IMG/VR virus record: IMGVR_UViG_2778261356_000013
Coordinates: 1 to 23,607 of that record
Strand: one strand, 5' to 3'
DNA from: a virus
Lineage: Duplodnaviria > Heunggongvirae > Uroviricota > Caudoviricetes
Length of the DNA stretch: 23,607 bases
This document shows, in pieces, positions 1,242 to 14,587 of the stretch. The position numbers and the translations under genes are program-made. A model generated the notes under the pieces. It was not told the DNA's origin. It saw nothing but the letters and a program-made list of their open reading frames with translations, and searched no databases. Positions within the stretch are counted from its first letter, which is position 1. Each line of letters starts with the position of its first letter.

Positions 1242-1433
1242 TTATCGTGAGTTTTTAGTACAGATTTTTTTGGATTTACTAATAGTTCCATCATTGCAAA
1301 CGAATTTGCCATCAGAGGTACAGTGAGAAACACCTCCCTTTTTCCCTGAGCAGGGATAATTTCTAGCATAGGTAGCTAGTGGGTTTAATAACAAAGAACA
1401 TGACAAAACCACAAAAAATACCTTACCAAGCAT
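1242..1433 (-). CDS. Small secreted cysteine-rich protein (63 aa), hypothetical moron
   Basis: ATG at 1433 preceded by strong RBS (GGGAGGA); N-terminal hydrophobic signal-like segment [23 protein letters not shown] then about 40 aa with 4 Cys; sits between int and repressor. Confidence 0.5.
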
Positions 1434-1448
1434 AATTTCCTCCCGGTA

Positions 1449-2018
1449 CTATTTAACATACTTGACTGTTAAACTTATAATTTTACCAATTATTTCAATG
1501 TCTTCTATCTTACATTCAAAGGCTCTGTTTCCACCCTCGACGAAGATTCTTCCACCGGGTAAACGAGTAATGTCACGGATCGTTATTTCGCCATCAATAC
1601 TTATTACCCATTTACCATCACGTATATCATCAAATTCCTTATCACAAATAAATTCAGAATTATTATCTGTGATTACAAAAAGATTCTTGAATGCCGACGG
1701 TAGAAATTCTCTATCGAAAATATAAAAACCGTCTTCACACAAGGCCCCATCAGATAATACATATTTAGCAACTTCCATAGTATTTGTATTACCTGAAGTT
1801 TGCTTTGAACCATGCCCGGTTGTGAGCCAATTAAGCGAGGTGCCTGTTTCAAGGGCGCACTGGATTACCCATTCTGCTGGGAATGAGTCACGCATGTAGC
1901 GTGTGGCGAGTGTACTTTTAGAGATTCCTAAATGATCGCACAACGCCTGTCGAGTCTTGAATCCATAAGCTTCTACCATGCGCTCTATGGCGCCTCGTCC
2001 GCCTTTCTCCAAATTCAT
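1449..2018 (-). CDS. cI: Immunity repressor, 186 CI-like (ORF-track start at 2024 is GTG; ATG at 2018 with GGAG upstream preferred)
   Basis: HTH-like N-terminus (RQALCDHLGISKSTLATRYMRD); about 190 aa; divergent from apl/cox-like gene across a promoter-bearing intergenic region; position immediately upstream of int as in P2/186. Confidence 0.7.
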   Translation of the reverse strand: MNLEKGGRGAIERMVEAYGFKTRQALCDHLGISKSTLATRYMRDSFPAEWVIQCALETGTSLNWLTTGHGSKQTSGNTNTMEVAKYVLSDGALCEDGFYIFDREFLPSAFKNLFVITDNNSEFICDKEFDDIRDGKWVISIDGEITIRDITRLPGGRIFVEGGNRAFECKIEDIEIIGKIISLTVKYVK

Positions 2019-2143
2019 GGTCACTCCAAGTGAACTTTTATCTTGACGATTTCACCGTGCGATCGTATGTTTATGGTGTTCACAAAATACAAACGATCCG
2101 TATTCGTCCTGATTAATCATCATTAAACGAGGAATGTTGCATC
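2019..2143. promoter_or_regulatory. Lysis-lysogeny switch region with candidate rightward promoter (TTGACG 2043-2048, 17-nt spacer, TATGTT 2066-2071) and inverted GTGAAC/GTTCAC repeats (about 2031-2036 and 2078-2083)
   Basis: Read directly from sequence between divergently oriented repressor and apl/cox-like genes; operator assignment is inference. Confidence 0.4.
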
Positions 2144-3721: not shown

Positions 3722-3948
3722 TGGCTGATGCAATGGATCTCGTACAGCAGCGCGTTGAAGAAGAACGCCAACGCCATATCCGTGCTGCCCGTGCCAAAAC
3801 GCCGGGCGTGTCCCGCGTGCTTTGCATTGAGTGTGAAGCGCCAATTCCGCCAGCACGCCGCCGTGCCATTCCGGGTGTGCAGCTTTGCATTACCTGTCAG
3901 GAAATCGCAGAGCTGAAAGGCAAACATTACAACGGAGGTGCTGTATGA
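3721..3948 (+). CDS. TraR/DksA-family C4 zinc-finger protein (75 aa)
   Basis: C-x2-C ... C-x2-C motif (CIECEAPIPPARRRAIPGVQLCITCQ) characteristic of TraR/DksA zinc fingers; translationally coupled on both sides. Confidence 0.7.
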   Translation: MADAMDLVQQRVEEERQRHIRAARAKTPGVSRVLCIECEAPIPPARRRAIPGVQLCITCQEIAELKGKHYNGGAV

Positions 3949-4802
3949 GCACCATCCTGAAATGGGCGGGAAATAAAACTGCCATAATGTCCGAACTAAA
4001 AAAACATCTTCCTGCTGGCCCGCGACTGGTTGAACCTTTCGCGGGTTCCTGTGCTGTGATGATGGAGACGGATTATCCCAGCTATCTGGTTGCGGATATT
4101 AATCCTGATTTAATCAACCTCTATAAAAAGGTTGCCGCTGATTGTGAATCGTTTATATCTCGCGCCAGAGTTTTATTTGAGATCGCAAACAGGGAGGTGG
4201 CTTATTACAACATAAGGCAGGAGTTTAATTACTCAACTGAAATTACTGATTTCATGAAAGCGGTATATTTCCTGTATCTCAATCGTCACGGTTACCGTGG
4301 TTTATGTCGCTATAACAAGAGCGGGCATTTCAACATTCCCTACGGTAATTATAAAAATCCGTATTTCCCTGAAAAAGAAATTCGCGCATTTGCAGAAAAG
4401 GCCCAGCGAGCAACGTTTATCTGCGCCAGCTTTGATGAAACGCTGGCGATGTTGAAGGCGGGGGATGTGGTGTATTGCGATCCGCCGTATGACGGTACGT
4501 TTTCCGGCTATCACACTGACGGCTTCACTGAAGATGACCAGTATCACCTGGCATCTGTTCTTGAACATCGGTCATCAGAAGGACATCCGGTCATTGTTTC
4601 TAACAGTGACACATCCCTGATCCGTTCGCTGTATCGCAATTTTACTCACCACTACATCAAGGCAAAACGCAGCATCGGTGTGGCAGCTGGCGAGGGTAAA
4701 TCAGCAACAGAAATCATTGCTGTTTCCGGGCCGCGCTGCTGGGTGGGATTTGATTATTCGCGTGGCGTGGATAGTTCTGCCGTGTACGGAGTACGTGCAT
4801 GA
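3945..4802 (+). CDS. dam: DNA adenine methyltransferase, Dam-like (ORF-track start 3885 is an upstream extension; ATG 3945 with GGAGG RBS preferred)
   Basis: Catalytic DPPY motif ([11 protein letters not shown]) and AdoMet-binding region ([11 protein letters not shown]) typical of N6-adenine MTases; N-terminal LKWAGNK. Confidence 0.85.
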
Positions 4803-7213
4803 GTCATGCCGATATGAACAACTGCTGCGGCTTTAACGAAGCTGCCGCATCGTTCTCATGGAACAGCTCGAAAAAGGCCATTAACCCTTATCTGGACCCG
4901 GTGGAAGTTGCGCCGGTTTCTACGCTTTCAAACCTGATCACTCTGTACGCTGCCGATAACGAGCAGGAACAGCTGCGCCGTGAGGCGCTGAGTGATCAGG
5001 TCTGGGAGCGTTATTTCTTTAATGAATCCCGTGATCCTGTCCAGCGCGAAATGGAACAGGATAAGCTCATTAGTCGGGCAAAGCTGGCGCATGAGCAGCA
5101 GCGTTTTAATCCGGATATGGTCATTCTGGCGGACGTCAACGCCCAGCCTTCCCATATCAGCAAGCCGCTGATGCAACGTATTGAATACTTCAGCAGCCTG
5201 GGCAGGCCAAAGGCTTATTCCCGCTATTTACGTGAGACGATTAAGCCATGTCTGGAACGACTGGAGCATGTACGCGACAGTCAGCTATCTGCATCTTTTT
5301 GCTTTATGGCAAGCCATGAAGGGCTGGACGGCCTGCTGATCCTGCCTGAAATGAGTCAGGATCAGGTGAAACGCCTGTCCACCCTGGTAGCTGCGCATAT
5401 GAGTATGTGCCTTGATGCCGCTTGTGGCGATTTGTATGCTACCGATGACGTTAAGCCAGAAGAAATCCGCAATACATGGGAAAGGGTGGCAGCGGAAACC
5501 CTGCGTCTGGATGTCATCCCGCCTGCGTTTGAGCAACTCCGTCGGAAAAGAAACCGCCGTAAACCCGTGCCCTATGAACTCATTCCGGGTTCGCTGGCGC
5601 GTATGTTGTGCGCCGACTGGTGGTATCGGAAATTATGGAAGATGCGTTGCGAATGGCGGGAAGAGCAGTTGCGTGCTGTCTGCCTTGTCAGCAAAAAAGC
5701 ATCTCCCTATGTCAGCTATGAAGCCGTGTTGCATAAACGTGAGCAGCGCCGTAAGTCGCTGGAGTTTTTCCGTTCTCATGAACTGGTGAACGAAGACGGC
5801 GACACGCTAGACATGGAGGATGTGGTAAACGCCAGCAGCAGCAACCCTGCGCATCGCCGCAATGAGATGATGGCCTGTGTTAAAGGTCTGGAGCTTATCG
5901 CGGAAATGCGCGGTGACTGCGCCGTTTTCTACACCATCACCTGTCCGTCACGTTTCCATTCCACGCTAAATAACGGCAGGCCCAACCCGACCTGGACAAA
6001 TGCGACGGTAAGACAAAGCAGCGATTATCTGGTCGGTATGTTTGCTGCATTTCGTAAGGCGATGCACAAAGCCGGGTTGCGCTGGTATGGCGTGCGGGTG
6101 GCTGAGCCGCATCACGACGGCACAGTTCACTGGCACCTGTTGTGTTTCATGCGCAAAAAAGACCGCCGCGCCATTACAGCATTGTTGCGTAAGTTTGCTA
6201 TCCGTGAAGACCGCGAGGAGCTGGGCAATAACACGGGGCCGCGCTTTAAGTCTGAGCTGATTAACCCGCGCAAAGGAACGCCGACAAGCTACATAGCGAA
6301 ATACATCAGTAAGAACATTGACGGGCGTGGTCTGGCTGGCGAGATCAGCAAGGAAACGGGTAAATCTCTGCGTGATAACGCTGAATACGTGAATGCCTGG
6401 GCGTCTTTGCATCGTGTTCAGCAATTCCGCTTCTTTGGCATTCCGGGGCGTCAGGCTTACCGTGAACTGCGATTGCTGGCTGGTCAGGCGGTAAGGCAAA
6501 AGGGGGACAAAAAAGCAGGTGCGCCGGTACTGGATAACCCGCGCCTTGATGCCATCCTGGCTGCTGCTGATGCTGGTTGTTTTGCCACCTACATCATGAA
6601 GCAGGGCGGCGTACTGGTTCCCCGTAAATATCACCTCATCAGAACCGCTTATGAAATCAACGAAGAGCCGACCGCCTATGGCGATCACGGCATTCGTATT
6701 TATGGCATCTGGTCACCCATTGCAGAGGGCAAGATCTGCACTCATGCAGTGAAGTGGAAAATGGTTCGTAAAGCCGTTGACGTTCAGGAGGCGGCAGCCG
6801 ACCAGGGCGCTTGCGCCCCTTGGACTCGTGGCAATAACTGTCCCCTTGCTGAAAATTTGAACCAACAAGGGAAAGACAAATCAGCTGATGGGGATACCAG
6901 GACGGACATTACCTGCATGGATGACAAGGAGTTGCACGATTACCTGCACAGTATGAGCAAAAAAGAGCGCCGAGAACTGGCTGCAAGGTTACGCCTCGTG
7001 AAACCGAAACGGCGTAAAGACTACAAACAGCGAATTACAGACCATCAGCGACAGCAGCTCGTCTATGAACTGAAGTCCAGAGGATTTAATGGCAGCGAGA
7101 AAGAGGTCGATTTACTCCTTCGCGGCGGCAGTATTCCGTCAGGAGCAGGCCTGCGTATCTTCTATCGGAACCAGCGTTTGCAGGAAGATGATAAGTGGCG
7201 AAACCTGTATTAA
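4799..7213 (+). CDS. A: Rolling-circle replication initiation endonuclease, P2 gpA-like (804 aa)
   Basis: HUH-type motif ([10 protein letters not shown]) and paired tyrosines ([14 protein letters not shown]) typical of P2 A / phiX174 A superfamily; start overlaps dam stop (ATGA). Confidence 0.85.
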
Positions 7214-7282
7214 TTACGCGGGTTAACAATTCGTGCTCTTAATAATACCAGGCATATCAGGCTGATGAACGTAAAAAAACGT

Positions 7283-7325
7283 TTTACATCAGTAAGATTA
7301 TTATATACTGTAAATATAAACAGTG
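7283..7325 (+). promoter_or_regulatory. SOS-type promoter with LexA box (TACTGTAAATATAAACAGTG, 7306-7325) overlapping the -10 region; -35 TTTACA at 7283-7288
   Basis: Perfect CTGT-N8-ACAG core at 7308-7323 read from sequence; about 40 bp upstream of the next ORF. Confidence 0.6.
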
Positions 7326-7366
7326 GTTATGTATACAGTATTGCTTGTGGTGTCATAGGAGGAAAG

Positions 7367-7555
7367 ATGCAGGACTATTTTTTGGAGTCTTTGAAGCTCC
7401 AGCGCATTGATTTTTTTCTTAAGCTTGTAGCGGCTAGTGAGTGTAGTGATGAAGAGAAGGGGCTGGCTTTGCAGTGGGTTTCTGAACTGACAGATGAACT
7501 CATGGCAAAAATCAGAACCCACGAATACAACCGCTCAATGGATGTCATCAGCTGA
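7367..7555 (+). CDS. Small SOS-controlled protein (62 aa), possible Tum-like antirepressor N-terminal module
   Basis: ATG 7367 with AGGAGG RBS; directly downstream of LexA box; function inferred from position only. Confidence 0.4.
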   Translation: MQDYFLESLKLQRIDFFLKLVAASECSDEEKGLALQWVSELTDELMAKIRTHEYNRSMDVIS

Positions 7556-7565
7556 GGTGACTTTT

Positions 7566-7799
7566 ATGCGCATTGAAATAATGATCGATAAAGAGCAGAA
7601 GATTAGCCAGTCTACCCTAGACGCCCTTGAATCCGAGCTTTACCGCAATCTGCGCCCCCTATATCCAAAAACGGTAATTCGCATCCGCAAAGGTAGCTCT
7701 AACGGTGTGGAACTGACCGGACTGCAACTGGACGAAGAAAGAAAACAAGTGATGAAAATTATGCAGAAGGTGTGGGAAGACGACAGCTGGCTGCATTAA
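7566..7799 (+). CDS. DinI-like protein (77 aa)
   Basis: Sequence MRIEIMIDKEQ...KVWEDDSWLH resembles DinI family (MRIEV... WE...W C-terminus); GAGGTG RBS; downstream of LexA box. Confidence 0.7.
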   Translation: MRIEIMIDKEQKISQSTLDALESELYRNLRPLYPKTVIRIRKGSSNGVELTGLQLDEERKQVMKIMQKVWEDDSWLH

Positions 7800-7807
7800 G
7801 AAACCTT

Positions 7808-7838
7808 GCCCCCAAGAGAATTTATTCTGATGGGGGCT
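7808..7838 (+). terminator. Stem-loop after DinI-like gene (GCCCCCA...TGGGGGC), weak U-tract
   Basis: Inverted repeat seen directly 9 nt after the stop codon; lacks strong T-run so intrinsic termination is uncertain. Confidence 0.35.
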
Positions 7839-8205
7839 AGTTTGGGCAACGAGTGAAACGAGGCGTAAGGTGGGCGGCCATTTTGATAAGTGATTGTACG
7901 CTTTGTGTTGTGAGTTCAACGGGTCGATGCAACGCTATCCTTAATCAAGGGGACGTTGCTCATACCCATCGATGCAATGAAAATCCATACTCATGGGGAA
8001 GACCAGAATGTCCCTGCCTTTTTCATTTTGTTCAGCACATGCACTATGGCCATTGCCTTCCCAAGCTAGCTATCGTAATCACTCAGCGTCAGTAAACTAC
8101 TGAAAAATTGTTTTACCTTGTATATCAATAATGCCAAATCATACCCAAAAAATCGAAAATAATTAGATCGACAGGCAGAAGGCAATGTGAATAATCTTAA
8201 AAACC

Positions 8206-8236
8206 TTGACTGCCAGTGAGGTTTGGTTCTATAAAT
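8206..8236 (+). promoter_or_regulatory. Candidate sigma70 promoter for darT-like operon (TTGACT 8206-8211, -10 near TATAAA(T) 8230-8236)
   Basis: Hexamers and spacing read from sequence about 30 bp upstream of the ATG. Confidence 0.35.
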
Positions 8237-8266
8237 AGACTTACGAATTTGAAAGGATGAGTTGAA

Positions 8267-8848
8267 ATGAGCGAAAGGAAAAGAATTGAAGACCAGTATC
8301 TTCTCTATCATTTAACATGTATGGATAATCTACCTAGTATTTTAGACACAGGATTAAGATCTCGTGCATCAGTAAAAGGTGAGTTTGTTGATGTGGCCGA
8401 CGGTGAAATAATAACAGGTCGCGAAGCATTAAATTTGCAAACAATGGTTCCTTTTCATTTCTTTACTAAGAATCCATTTGATGGAAGAGTCCTGAAAGAT
8501 CATAAGGAAAAATCATTTTGTATTATTTCGGTTTGTCGGGCATTTGCCAAAGAAAATGGTTGGAAAGTTATCCCTAAACATCCATTATCCACCAGTTCTG
8601 TTATAGACCTCTTAGATTATGAACAAGGAATGGCCCAAATTGACTGGGAGCTTATGAATATAAGGGATTATAAAAATGCAGAATGCAAATCTGTATGTAT
8701 GGCTGAGTGTTTATCAAGTGTAACGGTCGAGCCGAAAAATTTCCATTGCATCTTTGTCAAAAATGATAACGAAAAAAAATATGTTGAAGGGTTGATAAAA
8801 CAACAAGGATTAAGTATATTGATAACGATCAACACTTATATGTTCTAA
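8267..8848 (+). CDS. darT: DarT-like (DUF4433) DNA ADP-ribosyltransferase toxin (193 aa)
   Basis: Motifs YHLTCMDNLPSIL, VPFHFF and C-terminal MAECL resemble DarT signature blocks (YHxTHxxNLxxIL, VPFYF, catalytic AEFLV), from recall; AT-rich; followed 4 nt later by macrodomain gene. Confidence 0.7.
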   Translation: MSERKRIEDQYLLYHLTCMDNLPSILDTGLRSRASVKGEFVDVADGEIITGREALNLQTMVPFHFFTKNPFDGRVLKDHKEKSFCIISVCRAFAKENGWKVIPKHPLSTSSVIDLLDYEQGMAQIDWELMNIRDYKNAECKSVCMAECLSSVTVEPKNFHCIFVKNDNEKKYVEGLIKQQGLSILITINTYMF

Positions 8849-8852
8849 TTCT

Positions 8853-9824
8853 ATGATTAAGTATGCAAGCGGAAATCTTCTAAACTCTACATCGCAAGCT
8901 CTTGTGAATGCTGTAAACTGCCAAGGAGTCATGGGAAAGGGTATTGCTTTGGCTTTTAAAGAAACTTTTCCCTATAATTTCGAAGTTTATAAGAGAGCAT
9001 GCGCCACTGGTACAATGAAAATTGGACAGGTTTTAATTGTAGAGGAAAAGGGAAAAATAATCGTAAACTTTCCCACTAAAGATAGTTGGAGAAAAAAATC
9101 AACATATGATTTTATCTCGCAAGGCCTTGAATCTTTAGCAAAAATTATAGACGAAAAAAAAATTACATCAATATCAATACCACCTTTAGGCTGTGGTAAT
9201 GGGGGCCTCGATTGGAATAAGGTTGAGGCTCTTATTTTAAAAACTTTTCAAAATTTAGATAATGTTGATGTGGTAATTTATCCGCCTGCAACTAACAATC
9301 AACTTTCAAAAAATAAAAATGTTATTAATGCTAAGCATCTTTTGGTTCACTACGCCTATGGAAAATTAAAAGTTAAGCAAAAATATTCCCTTTATACAGT
9401 TTTTTATATTTGCGAATGTATTGAGAAAGCAAATCTTTTTTTATTCGATTTTAAACATGGTCGGCCATACTCTTCTGAGTTAGAAAATATTATGAAGGAT
9501 ATAGCAAACCTTAAAGTTGAGTTGCAAGGAGATTTTGATGCTTTTATTGAAGATTATATTAATACTCATCAATCCAAAGAGTTACAAACCGAGTTTGGTA
9601 AACTAATCTCAACTTTAAATCCAAGTATAAGTTTTCTCAATGCTCTTAAAAATAAGATTGATTATACAGATAGCGTACATGTGATCACGAGAATTGCTAA
9701 AGAAAAAGATCATGGCTTGCATATTGACAATTTCAAAGAATATGAAAATATTGTGCAGCATTTAATTAAAAATGGATTGGTAATCGAAGATATTTTTAAC
9801 GAACTAAAAATAAAGGGAAGTTAG
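8853..9824 (+). CDS. darG: DarG-like macrodomain antitoxin (323 aa): N-terminal macrodomain plus C-terminal domain of unknown fold
   Basis: Macrodomain signature ALVNAVNCQGVMGKGIALAFKETFP ... SIPPLGCGNGGLDW; operon partner of DarT-like gene. Confidence 0.7.
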   Translation: MIKYASGNLLNSTSQALVNAVNCQGVMGKGIALAFKETFPYNFEVYKRACATGTMKIGQVLIVEEKGKIIVNFPTKDSWRKKSTYDFISQGLESLAKIIDEKKITSISIPPLGCGNGGLDWNKVEALILKTFQNLDNVDVVIYPPATNNQLSKNKNVINAKHLLVHYAYGKLKVKQKYSLYTVFYICECIEKANLFLFDFKHGRPYSSELENIMKDIANLKVELQGDFDAFIEDYINTHQSKELQTEFGKLISTLNPSISFLNALKNKIDYTDSVHVITRIAKEKDHGLHIDNFKEYENIVQHLIKNGLVIEDIFNELKIKGS

Positions 9825-10376
9825 TAGCGCTATTTTCAATTTTTTTGCTGAAATTGCGCATGCACACTCTTACGCATTATAGATGCGGCGTTAATCCCGC
9901 CAGGAGTGTTGTTTAATAAATTGAACTATTTCTGCATTGAAGGATCAACTTACGCATTCGCTGACAACGCAGGCACTCTCCTGGCTAAGCAGAAATTCAG
10001 AGTAACCAACTGGCACTTTTACAACAATTTTCTTATCAGTTGCGGCTCCATGACTTTCTGGTGGGATAACAAAGCAATTAAGGCGTGGTATTGTAAGTAT
10101 CCCGCATAATCATGCTAGTAACATTTGTCCCCCATGTAACCTAATTAAGGCAACTTCCGCTCTTCGCTCACAGTGAACCTCCATGTTTGTAAACCCGTAT
10201 ATTTCGTTTTTCAAGTGGTCATTCAGATACGGATTTTCACTTCTCTTGGCTGTGCATGTCTATGCCGCATGAATCCGCATGATCGTTTGAGGATCGTTTT
10301 TGCTGAGGCCCCCCAGAACTGGCGGGCTTTTGCTTATGTCATGCAGGTGCATGAAAACCACTGCATAAAGCGGGCA

Positions 10377-10395
10377 GGCGTGGCGGGGATACGAG
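10377..10395. other. Candidate cos (cohesive end) site of the P2/186 family
   Basis: GGCGTGGCGGGGATACGAG resembles the 19-nt cohesive ends I recall for 186 (GGCGTGGCGGGGAAAGCAT) and P2 (GGCGAGGCGGGGAAAGCAC); lies in a 680-bp non-coding stretch on the terminase/portal side of the cargo locus. Confidence 0.45.
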
Positions 10396-10503
10396 CGCGC
10401 GCTTGTGGCTTTGAATACTCAAATCATGTAATGTTAATTGTCCAAGCTCAGATGTTATTTTAGAATCGTAGTTCACTAGAACTGTGTTAATTGGGAAGTA
10501 TTC

Positions 10504-11754
10504 ATGGATAAACAACGTGCTTCACAAGTTTTTGTGCCTGGCGGTATGCCGAAATTGACTTATGTTGAGCGCTCTGAAGGAGAGGTTCATGGAAAACTGG
10601 AGAGTGCTAAAGATAATTTATGTAAGTTAGTGACTTTAACTGGGCAAACAAAGTCTGGTAAGACTGTAATTACAAGAATGGTATTCCCAGTCATGGACGA
10701 TGATGTTGTATGGATTGACGGTGGGAGTATTACAACTGAAGATGATATTTGGGAGCAGGTATTAGAAAAACTAAATGGCTACCATAGTATTGAAGTTAAT
10801 TCTGGAGAAAATAGTGCTATTGCAGTTAGTGGTAAGGTATCGGGGACCGCAAGTGCATTAGTTGTTAAAGGTACAGGTGAGGCTGGTTTAGTTCAGACGG
10901 ATGGAAAGTCAAATGGTAATAAAAAATCGCGAACGATATCCGCAAAAAGTTCTGCACTAAAAGTTCTCTCTCAAACCAAGTCTAGTCTTATAATTGATGA
11001 CTTTCATTACCTTGATCGTGACCTACAAGGTAACTTTATTAGAGCGATAAAACCATTAGTTTTTGATGGAGTACCAGTTGTACTGATAGCCATTCCACAT
11101 CGAAGGTATGATGCTGTAAAAGTTGAAAAAGAAATTACCGGACGGCTAGAAAATATTTCCATGCCTTCGTGGGAAATGGATGAACTAAAACAAATAGCAA
11201 AAGTGGGATTTCCTCTGTTAAACATGGAAGTTAGTGATTCAGTAATTGATAAAATTGCCAATGAATCATTGGGAAGCCCTCATTTAATGCAAGAGTTTTG
11301 CAAGGCTATATGCTTAGCAAATAATGTTAAAGAAACTTTGCCGAGTAAGTTAGTTATTAATTCTTTAGATGATGATATTTTTAGAAAGGTTGCAGAATCC
11401 ACTGGGAAAATAGTATTTGATAAGTTAGCTAGTGGCCCTAATCAGCGAACTGACAGAATTCCTAGAAAACTGAAAAGTGGTGAGGAAGTAGATATATATA
11501 AAGTTGTATTATATGCATTGTCACATATGAAACCAGGAATGCAAAGTATTCAGTATGAGGAGTTAAGATCAGCCATACGCGAACTGGTGCAAGATGCTCC
11601 TCCACAAGCTCATGAGGTTACTCGTGTTATAGAAAAAATGGCTAAAATAGCTGCTACGGAAGAAGCTTCAACTCCTGTAATAGATTGGGATAAGGAGGAC
11701 CGAAAGTTGCATATTACTGATCCATTTTTTGCTTTTTATCTAAAATGGCGATAA
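10504..11754 (+). CDS. Orphan P-loop NTPase, AAA+/ATPase_2-like (416 aa); candidate stand-alone defence or exclusion gene
   Basis: Walker A GQTKSGKT (aa 47-54), Walker B LIIDDFHYL (aa 162-170, resembles xIDEFQYL of archaeal-type AAA ATPases); Gly/Ser-rich insert between them; ATG 10504 with GGGAAG RBS; AT-rich; located between candidate cos and portal gene. Confidence 0.6.
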   Translation: MDKQRASQVFVPGGMPKLTYVERSEGEVHGKLESAKDNLCKLVTLTGQTKSGKTVITRMVFPVMDDDVVWIDGGSITTEDDIWEQVLEKLNGYHSIEVNSGENSAIAVSGKVSGTASALVVKGTGEAGLVQTDGKSNGNKKSRTISAKSSALKVLSQTKSSLIIDDFHYLDRDLQGNFIRAIKPLVFDGVPVVLIAIPHRRYDAVKVEKEITGRLENISMPSWEMDELKQIAKVGFPLLNMEVSDSVIDKIANESLGSPHLMQEFCKAICLANNVKETLPSKLVINSLDDDIFRKVAESTGKIVFDKLASGPNQRTDRIPRKLKSGEEVDIYKVVLYALSHMKPGMQSIQYEELRSAIRELVQDAPPQAHEVTRVIEKMAKIAATEEASTPVIDWDKEDRKLHITDPFFAFYLKWR

Positions 11755-11761
11755 AGGTTCT

Positions 11762-11780
11762 GGCTGCCAAACTGGCAGCC
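11762..11780. terminator. Hairpin between convergent ATPase and portal genes (GGCTGCC-AAACT-GGCAGCC)
   Basis: Perfect 7-bp GC-rich inverted repeat read from sequence in the 32-bp gap between convergent stop codons; no strong U-tract on either strand. Confidence 0.4.
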
Positions 11781-11786
11781 TTAAAG

Positions 11787-12821
11787 CTAATTTGAATGAA
11801 GTTTATATTCTTCGAACTGTATCACTTTTTCTTTTAACCAAACATTTAACTCTTCAAATCTTTTTTGCAATGGTATTAGTTCATTGCGTACAAATACATT
11901 ACTTGCCTTCTCCACATCCCCAAACCCCCCAACATTATTTGGCATTATCCCCATCATCTGTGGCGGCACGCGGTGTGCCGCCATCATGTCATCGCGACTA
12001 ACATTTTTGATATTCAGAAATTCATCCTTCGCTGCGACTTCTGACAACGGGATAATCTGAAGTCCGTCTTTTTTACCATTAGGCGAGTACATAAACAGAT
12101 TGCGGAAGTTACCCGGACCTTTGGCGCTTTTCATTGCGTTGCGGAGGTTGTTCACATCCTCCTGGTTCTGCGCGGCATCGGTCATGTACATGATGAAGCC
12201 GGCATGACTGCCGTTAATGTAATACTTGCGGCGGAACAGCGTGGCGGACTCGTTGAGCAAAGCGGATGGGATGGCAGAAAGATAGCCGGGCAGGCCGTAG
12301 ATCTCCTGGTTGATGTCCGGTTCCATCAGATGAAAAATGCTGCCTTTCGTGAACTGATACGGCTGGGTTGTCATACCGTATTGCACAAACCAGTAGGTAT
12401 CCAGGTCTAACCCGCGTCGGGTGTATTTTGCCAGCGCAGGCTCAAGGGCGATAACTTCACCGAATCGGTTCGTGCGTTTCTCCAGGTAGGCGTTACCAAA
12501 TACCAGATAGTCCTGTACAAAACGCGAAAAAGCCTGTTGGCTGAGCAGCGGATGAGGGATATAGGTACTGGTCAGAATGTTGCACTTTACTGCAATCGGG
12601 GAACTGTGATGCACGGCAGCCCGGAAGGTGCGCGCCAGTCCGTCAAAACTTACGGGTGGCTCGTACCAACGCTCCATCTGTACGCATTCCACATAGTCCA
12701 GCAGTTCGCGGCGGTCCAGAACAGGAACGGGATCACCGAAGCTGAATGCTTCGGCTGAAGTCTGGCTTTTATGCTGGATCTGTTTCGTCGACGCAGCGCG
12801 GTTCTTCTTACTCTTTCCCAT
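11787..12821 (-). CDS. Q: Portal protein, P2 gpQ-like (about 344 aa from ATG at 12821)
   Basis: Size and position match P2 Q (minus strand, adjacent to terminase P, next to cos side); start overlaps terminase stop (ATGA); assignment by synteny and length. Confidence 0.8.
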   Translation of the reverse strand: MGKSKKNRAASTKQIQHKSQTSAEAFSFGDPVPVLDRRELLDYVECVQMERWYEPPVSFDGLARTFRAAVHHSSPIAVKCNILTSTYIPHPLLSQQAFSRFVQDYLVFGNAYLEKRTNRFGEVIALEPALAKYTRRGLDLDTYWFVQYGMTTQPYQFTKGSIFHLMEPDINQEIYGLPGYLSAIPSALLNESATLFRRKYYINGSHAGFIMYMTDAAQNQEDVNNLRNAMKSAKGPGNFRNLFMYSPNGKKDGLQIIPLSEVAAKDEFLNIKNVSRDDMMAAHRVPPQMMGIMPNNVGGFGDVEKASNVFVRNELIPLQKRFEELNVWLKEKVIQFEEYKLHSN

Positions 12822-14587
12822 CAAAAAATCTCCACAATATTGCTGGTATTGGCGGACTCGCCCTGCAGCGGTTCGTTAAACAGTGCGTGCATTGTTGCCC
12901 AGGCCAGATCGGCATGGCTGGCTTCTTCGCTGCGGCTGGCTTCATAGGTCGGGCGGTTGCCACTGGCAGTGGTAGCGCGACGGATTGCCATAAATGACTG
13001 CGCAATGTCGGTGTGCCCGGCGTCAAACTCCAGACGGCGGTGGCTGATAATGTCGTAGGCCTTGAGTACCAGGGCGTTTTTAACATTGGGGTTGTAGACA
13101 AACTCCCGGACGGCAGGAAAGAACGCTTTCACGTTCTCATAAACCCCGTGACCAACGCCGGTTGAGTCGATACCGATATAGGTCACGTTGTACTGTTCGG
13201 TCAGTTTTTTGATGGCGTCAGCCTGGGCGCGGAAGTCCATCCCGCGCCACTGGTGACGCTCAAGAATGCGGAACTTACCACCAGGCACGGCTGGCGGTGC
13301 CACCACCACGCATCCGGCGCTGTCGCCGTTTTGCGTACCTTTTGCCGGGTCATAACCGATCCACACTTCGCGCCAGCCAAACGGGCGCAGAGCCAGTGCA
13401 TGAAAGTCGGTCCAGACTTCCCAGCTGTCCACCATGCACGCCTGCAGCTCGCTGAGCGGAAATACGGACGCGAGATCGTCCACAAACTCGCACATCAGCA
13501 GGTTCTGGTATTCGTCCGGGCTGTACTCCATGCGCAACTGGTCAAGGTCGAACAGGTTACAGCCGCCGCGCACCGCATCTTCCACGGTGACTATCTGGCG
13601 GTATTGCCCGTCTGCGCACAGCAGGCCGGGGGCCAGATTGCTGTGGGACAGGTCGATGTCCACCTTGTCGGCCTTGTTGCGCCCACGGTTGAACAGCGCA
13701 CCGGACCAGAACGGATAAGCACTGTGTGTCAGGCTGGATGGCGTGGAAAAATAGGTTTGTCGCCATTTTTTGTGAATAGCCATACCGGATGCCACTTTGC
13801 GCAGCTCCTGGAATTTCGGTATCCAGAAATATTCATCCAGATACAGGTTGCCGTGATAACTCTGGGCCGTGCGGGCATTGGTGCCGAGGAAGTAAAGCGT
13901 GGCCCCGTTAGGAAGCACCATCGGATCGCCTTTCAACTCCACCCCCACTTCTTTGGCGAAGTCGATGATGTACTGCTTAAAGACGTGGGCCTGTGCCTTG
14001 CTGGCGGAAAGGAAAATCTGGTTACGTCCGGTAAGCAGGGCGTCAATCAGGGCTTCACGGGCAAAGTAAAAGGTCGCGCCGATCTGGCGTGACTTCAGCA
14101 GGTTGCGGATGCGGTTGGTTTTTCCGGCTTCCCACCAGTGGCGCTGGTAGTTGAACATGGAGGAATGGAAGATTTCTTCCAGCTTCTCAATCTGCTCATC
14201 GGTGAAAACATTCTTTTCCGGCTGACGGCGTGGGCCTTTATTGCGGTTGGCGACGTTAGGGTTTAAGTCGGCTTCGTTGCCGCCATTGTTAAACTTGCCG
14301 ATCCGCGCGTGGCGCTCCGACTGGCGCGCCAGCAGGTCAATCTCTTTGAAATCTTTCCCTTCTTTGTGCTCCTTCATGATGAGCTGGCAGTAGCGTGCGG
14401 CGGTGGTGAGCTGCATCTGATCCAGCGGCCCATAGTCACCCCACTTGTCGCGTTTTTTCCAGCTGTGAACGGTTGCAACTTTCTCGCCCAGCATTTCAGC
14501 AATGCGGGCTACGCGGTATCCCTGAAAGTACAGCAGCATGGCCTGCCGACGGGGATCGAGATCTGCGGGTGTCAGTGTGGTGTTCAT
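12821..14587 (-). CDS. P: Terminase large (ATPase) subunit, P2 gpP-like (588 aa)
   Basis: Length and divergent arrangement versus O-N-M-L match P2 P; ATG at 14587; assignment by synteny and length. Confidence 0.85.
   Translation of the reverse strand: MNTTLTPADLDPRRQAMLLYFQGYRVARIAEMLGEKVATVHSWKKRDKWGDYGPLDQMQLTTAARYCQLIMKEHKEGKDFKEIDLLARQSERHARIGKFNNGGNEADLNPNVANRNKGPRRQPEKNVFTDEQIEKLEEIFHSSMFNYQRHWWEAGKTNRIRNLLKSRQIGATFYFAREALIDALLTGRNQIFLSASKAQAHVFKQYIIDFAKEVGVELKGDPMVLPNGATLYFLGTNARTAQSYHGNLYLDEYFWIPKFQELRKVASGMAIHKKWRQTYFSTPSSLTHSAYPFWSGALFNRGRNKADKVDIDLSHSNLAPGLLCADGQYRQIVTVEDAVRGGCNLFDLDQLRMEYSPDEYQNLLMCEFVDDLASVFPLSELQACMVDSWEVWTDFHALALRPFGWREVWIGYDPAKGTQNGDSAGCVVVAPPAVPGGKFRILERHQWRGMDFRAQADAIKKLTEQYNVTYIGIDSTGVGHGVYENVKAFFPAVREFVYNPNVKNALVLKAYDIISHRRLEFDAGHTDIAQSFMAIRRATTASGNRPTYEASRSEEASHADLAWATMHALFNEPLQGESANTSNIVEIF

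Follow-up and report, generated by a model that had tools for sequence, protein, structure and literature searches.

Which of the genes lying between the replication gene A and the portal gene Q of a P2-like phage are exchangeable cargo, and whether such cargo was acquired as one piece, is the question raised by a stretch of DNA of 23,607 nucleotides from a Caudoviricetes virus (IMG/VR record IMGVR_UViG_2778261356_000013, positions 1 to 23,607), the whole of which is called the window hereafter. The window codes for an integrase, a 186-type CI repressor (Phage_CI_repr and Phage_CI_C, 1449-2024, minus strand), a CII protein (CP76, 2392-2907), a Dam-type methylase and a large terminase in addition to A and Q, and from this gene content the element is a prophage of the 186/Fels-2 type within the P2 family (Peduoviridae). 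The terminase and capsid genes come after the portal gene, relatives of which are encoded in about 600 IMG/VR stretches. An initial annotation had taken everything between A and Q (7214-11786) as a single AT-rich cargo island, equivalent to the tin/old locus of P2, holding an SOS-controlled small gene with a DinI-like gene, a DarTG-like pair and an orphan ATPase, and divided by a candidate cohesive-end (cos) site. Our analysis confirms that observation and supports its interpretation in part. The interval is very probably a cos-proximal accessory region made of four functionally separate parts: an SOS operon, a left cargo slot with DarTG, the cos block and a right cargo slot with the ATPase (Table 1).

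Two cargo slots around a conserved cos block

The A-Q interval consists of two cargo slots that are refilled independently around a conserved cos block. The comparison covered 69 related IMG/VR loci that contain the end of A, and 67 loci with all anchors (66 from IMG/VR and the window). Whatever the flanking cargo, the cos block keeps 84-96% identity in 68 of these 69 and 75% in the last one, L058. To its left, the interval from tumB to cos measures 78-79 bp in 22 of the 67 loci, a state considered as empty, and up to 4.4 kb in the others; to its right, the interval from cos to Q extends from 165 to 3504 bp. The left slot was found in 21 states and the right slot in 46, combined in 60 distinct pairs, when random pairing gives 63.2 ± 1.6. 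It weighs against this result that the IMG/VR loci are not dereplicated, and the pair counts describe the sample without amounting to a formal test. The same 2452-bp left insert is present in L004, L037 and L043, each with a different cargo in the right slot, and an identical ATPase protein adjoins DarTG, a DUF4145 gene or an OLD-like ATPase pair, according to the locus. Among 5426 complete Escherichia coli genomes, the DarTG stretch (7800-10402) occurs in about 10, at 99-100% identity and with different genes beyond cos, other genomes have the ATPase with different genes before cos, 1783 share the conserved parts only, and none carries DarTG and the ATPase together.

The breakpoints of homology were located in the same loci. 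Those sharing DarTG lose homology at 10401-10403, and those sharing the ATPase gain it at 10251-10252 (10152 in one case), the positions at which homology to relatives with another left cargo, which ends at 7797-7908, also resumes. The segment from A to tumB is 98.5-99.8% identical in the DarTG loci and Q is 98.6-99.4% identical in the ATPase loci, and the arm opposite the shared cargo can be much more diverged. Each cargo would travel with the adjacent genome arm, the exchange presumably taking place in the cos block or at its edges. On the right side, the homology of Q to relatives with another right cargo begins 4-91 bp upstream of the Q stop codon, and therefore the last few Q codons seem to be exchanged along with the cargo.

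The G+C content (GC) of the interval is 0.378 and that of the remaining window 0.531 (over 500-bp windows outside 7214-11786, mean 0.531 and sd 0.055), and the sliding profile passes from 0.53-0.55 in gene A to 0.29-0.47 over approximately 7000-11750 and then above 0.5 in Q and P. The windowed profile thus confirms the compositional break, and the bounds proposed for it are exact, the A stop codon ending at 7213 and the Q stop codon, on the minus strand, lying at 11787. The AT-rich character is not uniform, though: the cos block (0.566) is core-like, unlike the flanking cargo, and the two genes of the SOS operon (0.444 for the 62-codon open reading frame, 0.466 for the DinI-like gene) are comparable to the phage early region (0.461). 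The AT-richest genes are those coding for DarT (0.344), DarG (0.312) and the ATPase (0.373), and the cargo of the other loci is AT-rich as well (average GC of 0.39 for left-slot and 0.36 for right-slot fillings).

A GC depression continuous across most of the interval would suit a horizontal acquisition of the whole 4.6 kb as one AT-rich island inserted as a unit between A and Q, and so would the recurrence of the exact DarTG and ATPase combination in the draft assemblies L098 (SRR21800413 contig) and L103 (GCA_040719655.1), with 17 further similar places reported. Both assemblies are 100% identical to window positions 6600-12400, and the combination thus exists in sequenced isolates although it was met in 0 of the 5426 complete E. 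coli genomes. The single island is nevertheless already contradicted, and we give it next to no probability: whatever the cargo, the tum module is conserved at 96-100% beside A; the interval is interrupted by the cos block, which is itself conserved and of normal GC; either cargo is met in the absence of the other; and left and right fillings are combined almost as chance would have it. The claim of one island accordingly gives way to two slots assorting independently around the conserved cos block.

The position of cos was established by reading the sequence and by aligning the block with the circularised end junctions of 186 and P2, and it is very likely, by this homology, that cos lies at 10377-10395, between DarTG and the ATPase as initially proposed. 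The 19-mer of the window, GGCGTGGCGGGGATACGAG, shares its first 13 nucleotides with the 186 cos and is related to the P2/186-type sequence GGCG(A/T)GGCGGGGAAAGCA(C/T); the flanks are conserved too, with TGCAT repeats, AAAACC...AAGCGGGCA upstream and GCGCGC downstream. The same 19 nucleotides are nt 1-19 of the record of Salmonella phage SEN8, where they are annotated "putative cos site", and this record ends exactly at the equivalent of window position 10376. Moreover, the 19-mer is invariant in 64 of the 67 loci in spite of their varying surroundings, the other three differing at the last base only.

In the case where the 152-bp block would be a regulatory or recombination site, packaging would start elsewhere. 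For this possibility it can be said that the last six bases of the 19-mer (TACGAG) differ at four positions from those of 186 (AAGCAT) and P2 (AAGCAC), and that cos was placed by homology in this variant. Other points weigh against the cos call in the same manner: in the SEN8 record, too, the site is no more than putative, and PSP3, which was considered as a possible carrier of the same variant, has the 186 sequence in its place. A search with the P2 cos 19-mer, allowing up to 3 mismatches, gave no match. Once cargo is discounted, however, the position of the block relative to Q is the same as in P2 and 186, and this, together with the identity of the first 13 nucleotides, the conserved flanks, the invariance of the 19-mer among loci and the placement of cos at this site by the SEN8 depositors, makes a function other than packaging very improbable.

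Taking 10377-10395 as cos, the terminase would make staggered cuts flanking these positions and, as in P2 and 186, would leave a 19-nt 5' overhang beginning with GGCG(T/A)GGCGGGGA; the flanks are conserved, also as in these phages, chiefly next to the future right end of the linear genome. By the coordinates, and given this cos call, the packaged DNA would have the ATPase gene about 110 bp inside its left end and DarTG about 550 bp inside its right one, which agrees with the arrangement first suggested. An open reading frame of 64 codons (10269-10463, plus strand) runs across cos and is represented in relatives by RefSeq hypothetical proteins (WP_071533703, WP_072199413). It matches phrog_28685 (E 2e-26) only over the cos block (residues 33-78 of a longer open reading frame, approximately 10269-10406), and this "hypothetical protein" of RefSeq and PHROG is probably an annotation artefact arising from the conservation of the cos DNA.

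The distance between cos and Q also settles the relation to P2. In P2 and 186 merely 167-177 bp separate cos from Q/W, the right slot being empty, whereas in the window an insert of 1.4 kb lies there. Therefore only the left slot corresponds to orf91-tin-old of P2 or to orf97 of 186, and the equivalence with tin/old drawn in the initial annotation holds for A-Q as the variable AT-rich accessory locus of P2-like phages but, in position, for the left slot alone. The left-slot gene STM2726 of Fels-2 (L097, 2719-3450) was examined as a homologue of 186 orf97 (L007, 5605-6336) and rejected, no similarity being found; both genes have exactly 243 codons. The annotation of the 186 record states that orf97 on a plasmid blocks 186 infection.

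The SOS-controlled module beside gene A

The LexA-controlled open reading frame and the DinI-like gene that follows it form, as in phages of the Fels-2/PSP3 type, a split Tum (TumA/TumB) induction module, and are not cargo. This conclusion is drawn because the two proteins are 98-100% identical to their Fels-2 counterparts, because the module stands beside A in all 69 loci and because the second gene is homologous to the C-terminal half of 186 Tum, and the first is linked at profile level to the N-terminal half. The 62-residue TumA-like protein is 98% identical to STM2728 of Fels-2, whereas TumB is 100% identical to STM2726.1 of Fels-2, 78% to TumB of PSP3 and 41% to residues 71-145 of 186 Tum. 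The 62-codon gene was found in 69 of 69 loci with 79-100% nucleotide identity, 152-154 bp after A in 67 of them and 161 bp after A in one more. The three modules initially listed in the interval are all present, as is the cos site, but the first of them drops out of the cargo: alignment of the relatives shows it conserved in the family, the very pattern that had been named beforehand as speaking against such a status.

In 186 the order downstream of A is p95, then tum, then orf97, so that cargo lies between tum and cos as in the left slot of the window, and the two parts are fused in one Tum protein of 146 amino acids, whereas they are separate genes here and in Fels-2 and PSP3, where tum is split in two by a stop codon (Lemire 2011, PMC3121763). 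Otherwise the arrangement is that of 186, PSP3 and Fels-2, with a LexA box over the -10 element directly downstream of A, then the part with the known or putative antirepressor, then the DinI-like part. The -10 hexamer TACTGT of the annotated 186 p95 promoter forms the first 6 nt of its LexA site, and the layout in the window is identical. The LexA box of the window is the sole match within 3 mismatches of the consensus, and no match was obtained in 100 shuffled sequences; the p95-like promoter itself was missed by the consensus promoter scan.

At the level of protein sequence, the 62-residue product is related to 186 Tum and PSP3 TumA through profiles only. The N-terminal 70 amino acids of 186 Tum match phrog_698 (E 5.9e-6) and phrog_8554 (E 3.4e-12), the latter PHROG profile being matched by both proteins when pairwise BLASTP is negative, and the alignment reveals a motif common to the two, C..(D/E)..AL. 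Some data weigh against ascribing an antirepressor function to this gene. BLASTP of the 62-residue protein against 186 Tum and PSP3 TumA gave no match, the alignment to them reaches about 21-22% identity, and the antirepressor activity carried by the upstream gene of PSP3 is a personal communication cited in PMC3121763. It can be added that BLASTP between PSP3 TumA and 186 Tum is likewise negative.

By analogy with 186 and PSP3, the module would work in three steps: (i) DNA damage leads to the cleavage of LexA, and the p95-like promoter would be derepressed; (ii) TumA would act as an antirepressor inactivating the 186-type CI repressor; and (iii) TumB, as a DinI-like protein, would modulate RecA. 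The hairpin that follows tumB has a poor U-tract and corresponds to the one borne by the 78-79-bp spacer of loci with an empty left slot; a partial read-through into the cargo is possible there, as at t95a of 186.

Cargo of the two slots

The pair of genes in the left slot is of the DarTG2 class, as judged from an antitoxin with a macrodomain and not a NADAR domain, and the Pfam DarT and Macro matches together with the PADLOC matches (Table 1) bear out its first description as DarTG-like. The DarT match reaches 78.2 bits for a cut-off of 22.5 and covers model positions 1-199 of 201, and the Macro domain of DarG lies at residues 18-127, ahead of a predicted DarT-binding region at the C-terminus. 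The solved DarG macrodomains 5m3i and 5m31 match DarG with E values of 2.6e-43 and 3.2e-37, respectively, and Lys76 of its FPTK motif aligns with native position 80 of 5m3i, which is the K80 of the literature. Glu147 of DarT belongs to a MAECL motif that the alignment places over the active site of 7omu, and it is a candidate catalytic residue. Gene order (darT then darG, 4 bp apart), macrodomain antitoxin and conserved catalytic lysine are those of DarTG2 systems, from which the pair differs by a divergent DarT (E 1.4e-4 to the only solved relative). The NCBIfam equivalog cut-offs, which both proteins miss (53 for 150 in DarT, a further sign of its divergence, and 230 for 250 in DarG), speak against the assignment.

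DarT2 is an enzyme that attaches ADP-ribose to thymidines of single-stranded DNA; DarG takes this mark off by means of its catalytic lysine (K80) and also binds DarT (PMC11543638). By analogy, infection by another phage would let the toxin act on the replicating phage DNA, and the infection would be aborted. The pair could also be mainly an addiction or stabilisation module, keeping the prophage or its cargo in the lineage rather than defending it against phages. Its architecture of a bona fide type II toxin-antitoxin system, with the two genes almost adjoining, and its allele, of which the 5426 complete E. coli genomes contain few and nearly clonal copies (10 genomes, with an identity of 99% or more throughout), are compatible with such a selfish spread. 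The locus is, however, a hotspot in which many cargos have been shown to defend (PMC9122126; PMC9519451), and phage protection has been reported for both DarTG classes (PMC11543638). Addiction and defence are not mutually exclusive, and we hold addiction as the main role to be improbable.

Close to the cos-proximal edge of the left slot lies the 5' fragment of a transposase gene of the IS5/IS1182 family (IS, insertion sequence), which is the scar of an earlier IS insertion in this slot. E. coli LR-46, whose sequence is identical over this stretch, has a pseudogene there according to its PGAP annotation. The remnant accompanies DarTG in all near-identical copies.

The right slot holds, as first described, a solitary ATPase gene, whose product matches the PADLOC defence candidate PDC-S59 over its full length (E 6.6e-32, with residues 7-415 aligned to positions 6-402 of the 428 in the model). 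Its fold combines an AAA+ core with a lid and, at the C-terminus, a helical or winged-helix region resembling that of Cdc6/Orc1. Residues G47, K50, G52, K53 and T54 of Walker A and D165 and D166 of Walker B are invariant in 34 homologues, and the AAA+ likeness, with intact Walker A and B, extends to the clade of ORC/Cdc6 and the "archaeal ATPases" (2qen, 2fna). The sensor-2 position reads GSPH here and GTPR in RuvB. The family, which is widespread and mobile, counts 1671 homologues; identity exceeds 50% between members as distant as those of enterobacteria and cyanobacteria, many residues are invariant, and the homologue is a solo gene in Pseudomonas and Vibrio. A Gly/Ser/Lys-rich insert interrupts the AAA+ core at residues 99-141 (approximately 10798-10926); it is the sole poorly conserved, low-confidence and variable part of an otherwise very strongly conserved protein.

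Our best guess, held with low confidence, is that the protein would be an ATP-dependent nucleic-acid-binding switch acting as a single-gene defence. Several observations weigh against this guess. Comparisons with solved structures, using the single sequence or a 34-sequence profile, gave marginal matches to the RuvB lid only; no recognisable effector domain was found in the protein; literature searches on PDC-S59 and on Cdc6-like single-gene defences returned nothing relevant; PDC-S59 is not among the systems reported active by Rousset 2022 (PMC9122126); and the label of defence derives from its candidate status in PADLOC and from its location. The gene could instead code for an accessory factor of DNA transactions, for instance one that loads the replication machinery or the remains of a transposition helper of the TniB/TnsC/MuB kind, or bring the phage some other benefit. 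A weak Pfam TniB match (E 0.0018), a Tn5-type transposase that adjoins the homologue in Vibrio, and the lack of an effector domain are in agreement with a non-immune role. In the right slot and in Pseudomonas, on the other hand, the gene is always solo, without a transposase partner; the slot is filled with interchangeable accessory genes, the match to the defence candidate runs end to end, and P2 and 186 have no gene at this position. We consider a non-immune role somewhat unlikely.

Consensus promoter and terminator scans of the region gave sites no more numerous than in shuffled sequence, and therefore the individual sites found by scanning are listed in Table 1 as candidates only. Rfam returned no RNA family at gathering thresholds over the whole window, and over 7200-11800 solely a chance-level tmRNA fragment inside darG (E 0.096; 11.8 bits for a gathering score of 47). 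Two features lie outside the interval. A second GC dip (0.35-0.36) occurs at approximately 1000-1750, at the junction of the integrase and CI genes, and contains an open reading frame of 63 codons (1242-1433, minus strand) without Pfam match. Directly upstream of gene A and overlapping its start, a gene for a D12-class N6-adenine DNA methyltransferase (3885-4802, plus strand) is present in many relatives, whereas 186 and P2 have other genes there.

Table 1. Features of the A-Q interval and of its conserved flanks, in window coordinates (aa, amino acids).
Feature	Position	Strand	Evidence
Replication gene A, left conserved flank	4799-7213	+	Pfam Phage_GPA, E 1.6e-127
p95-like promoter: TTTACA (7283-7288), 17-nt spacer, TACTGT (7306-7311)	7283-7311	+	Read from the sequence
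LexA (SOS) box TACTGTAAATATAAACAGTG	7306-7325	+	3 mismatches to consensus
TumA-like small protein, 62 aa, putative CI antirepressor	7367-7555	+	phrog_698, E 3.6e-38; phrog_8554
TumB / DinI-like protein, 77 aa	7566-7799	+	Pfam DinI, E 6.6e-23, above cut-off
Left cargo slot, tumB to cos block, GC 0.357	7800-10251		Homology breakpoints
GC-rich hairpin after tumB, probably terminating the SOS operon weakly or partially	7808-7837	+	-20.3 kcal/mol, z -2.9
Candidate sigma-70 promoter for darTG: TCGACA, 16-nt spacer, AATAAT	8168-8195	+	Consensus scan, 10/12 positions
DarT ADP-ribosyltransferase toxin, 193 aa	8267-8848	+	Pfam DarT; PADLOC DarT, E 2.2e-36
DarG macrodomain antitoxin, 323 aa	8853-9824	+	PADLOC DarG, E 4.6e-80, residues 1-305
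IS5/IS1182-family transposase gene remnant, 5' fragment	9981-10088 (open reading frame 9906-10109)	+	phrog_2262 transposase family, E 1.5e-7
Conserved cos block, terminase recognition region, 152 bp, GC 0.566	10252-10403		Alignment with relatives
19-nt cohesive-end sequence GGCGTGGCGGGGATACGAG, very likely cos	10377-10395	+	15/19 identical to 186 cos GGCGTGGCGGGGAAAGCAT, flanks aligned
Right cargo slot, cos block to Q stop, GC 0.374	10404-11786		Homology breakpoints
Solitary ORC/Cdc6-like AAA+ ATPase, 416 aa, defence candidate	10504-11754	+	Weak Pfam AAA_22; PADLOC PDC-S59
Hairpin between convergent ATPase and Q, candidate bidirectional terminator	11762-11780		-16.2 / -15.3 kcal/mol, z -2.75 / -3.35
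Portal gene Q, right conserved flank	11787-12824	-	Pfam Phage_portal, E 1.3e-17

Place within the known P2-family hotspot

That the cos-proximal gpA-gpQ region is a hotspot of defence genes has been published (Rousset 2022, PMC9122126), on the basis of 18,150 E. coli loci with 1,650 gene arrangements among them; it was confirmed by functional selection (Vassallo 2022, PMC9519451) and with which later surveys agree. The interval described here belongs to it, being located between A and Q of a P2-family phage with a content hypervariable among collinear relatives, and it resembles the P2 hotspot by the same flanks, the proximity of cos and an AT-rich interchangeable cargo; it differs from P2 itself, where cargo is found only on the A side of cos, in having both sides filled. 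Table S5 of Rousset lists arrangements with DarT, Macro and DinI as well as the ATPase family WP_000360886 at this locus (PMC9122126). Since the hotspot is published and both cargos are in that supplementary table, the finding is an instance of something already known, and nothing in it is new in kind.

Three refinements, none of them a discovery, can be made, one being the probable annotation artefact across cos described above. The DinI gene and the open reading frame upstream of it, which appear in the Rousset table as hotspot content, are the conserved split Tum. In addition, Rousset 2022 (PMC9122126) and the later surveys treat A-Q as a single hotspot, without mention of a division by cos, whereas our comparison resolves it into two independently assorting slots around cos. 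A more far-reaching hypothesis could be issued from this division, namely that the two slots of the apparently single hotspot are mechanistically coupled by cos, either the cutting by terminase or the invariant 152-bp block serving as a crossover that re-pairs genome arms, each with its own terminal cargo, and that, separately, the right-slot gene would be a new single-protein defence, an ORC/Cdc6-like AAA+ switch without recognisable effector domain. We find this hypothesis doubtful. If it were true, defence repertoires would be shuffled combinatorially at every mixed infection, and defence genes would stand at both physical ends of the injected DNA.

The result leaves the current understanding of P2-like hotspots unchanged, and its main value is one of annotation. 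The conserved induction switch, the split Tum, is separated from the true cargo, and the position of cos is fixed by homology for the Fels-2-type cos variant. As the two slots assort independently, surveys that score A-Q as one arrangement count left-by-right combinations and not independent acquisitions. The solitary ORC/Cdc6-like ATPase, a widespread and highly conserved solo AAA+ protein, is a reasonable candidate for experimental defence screening.

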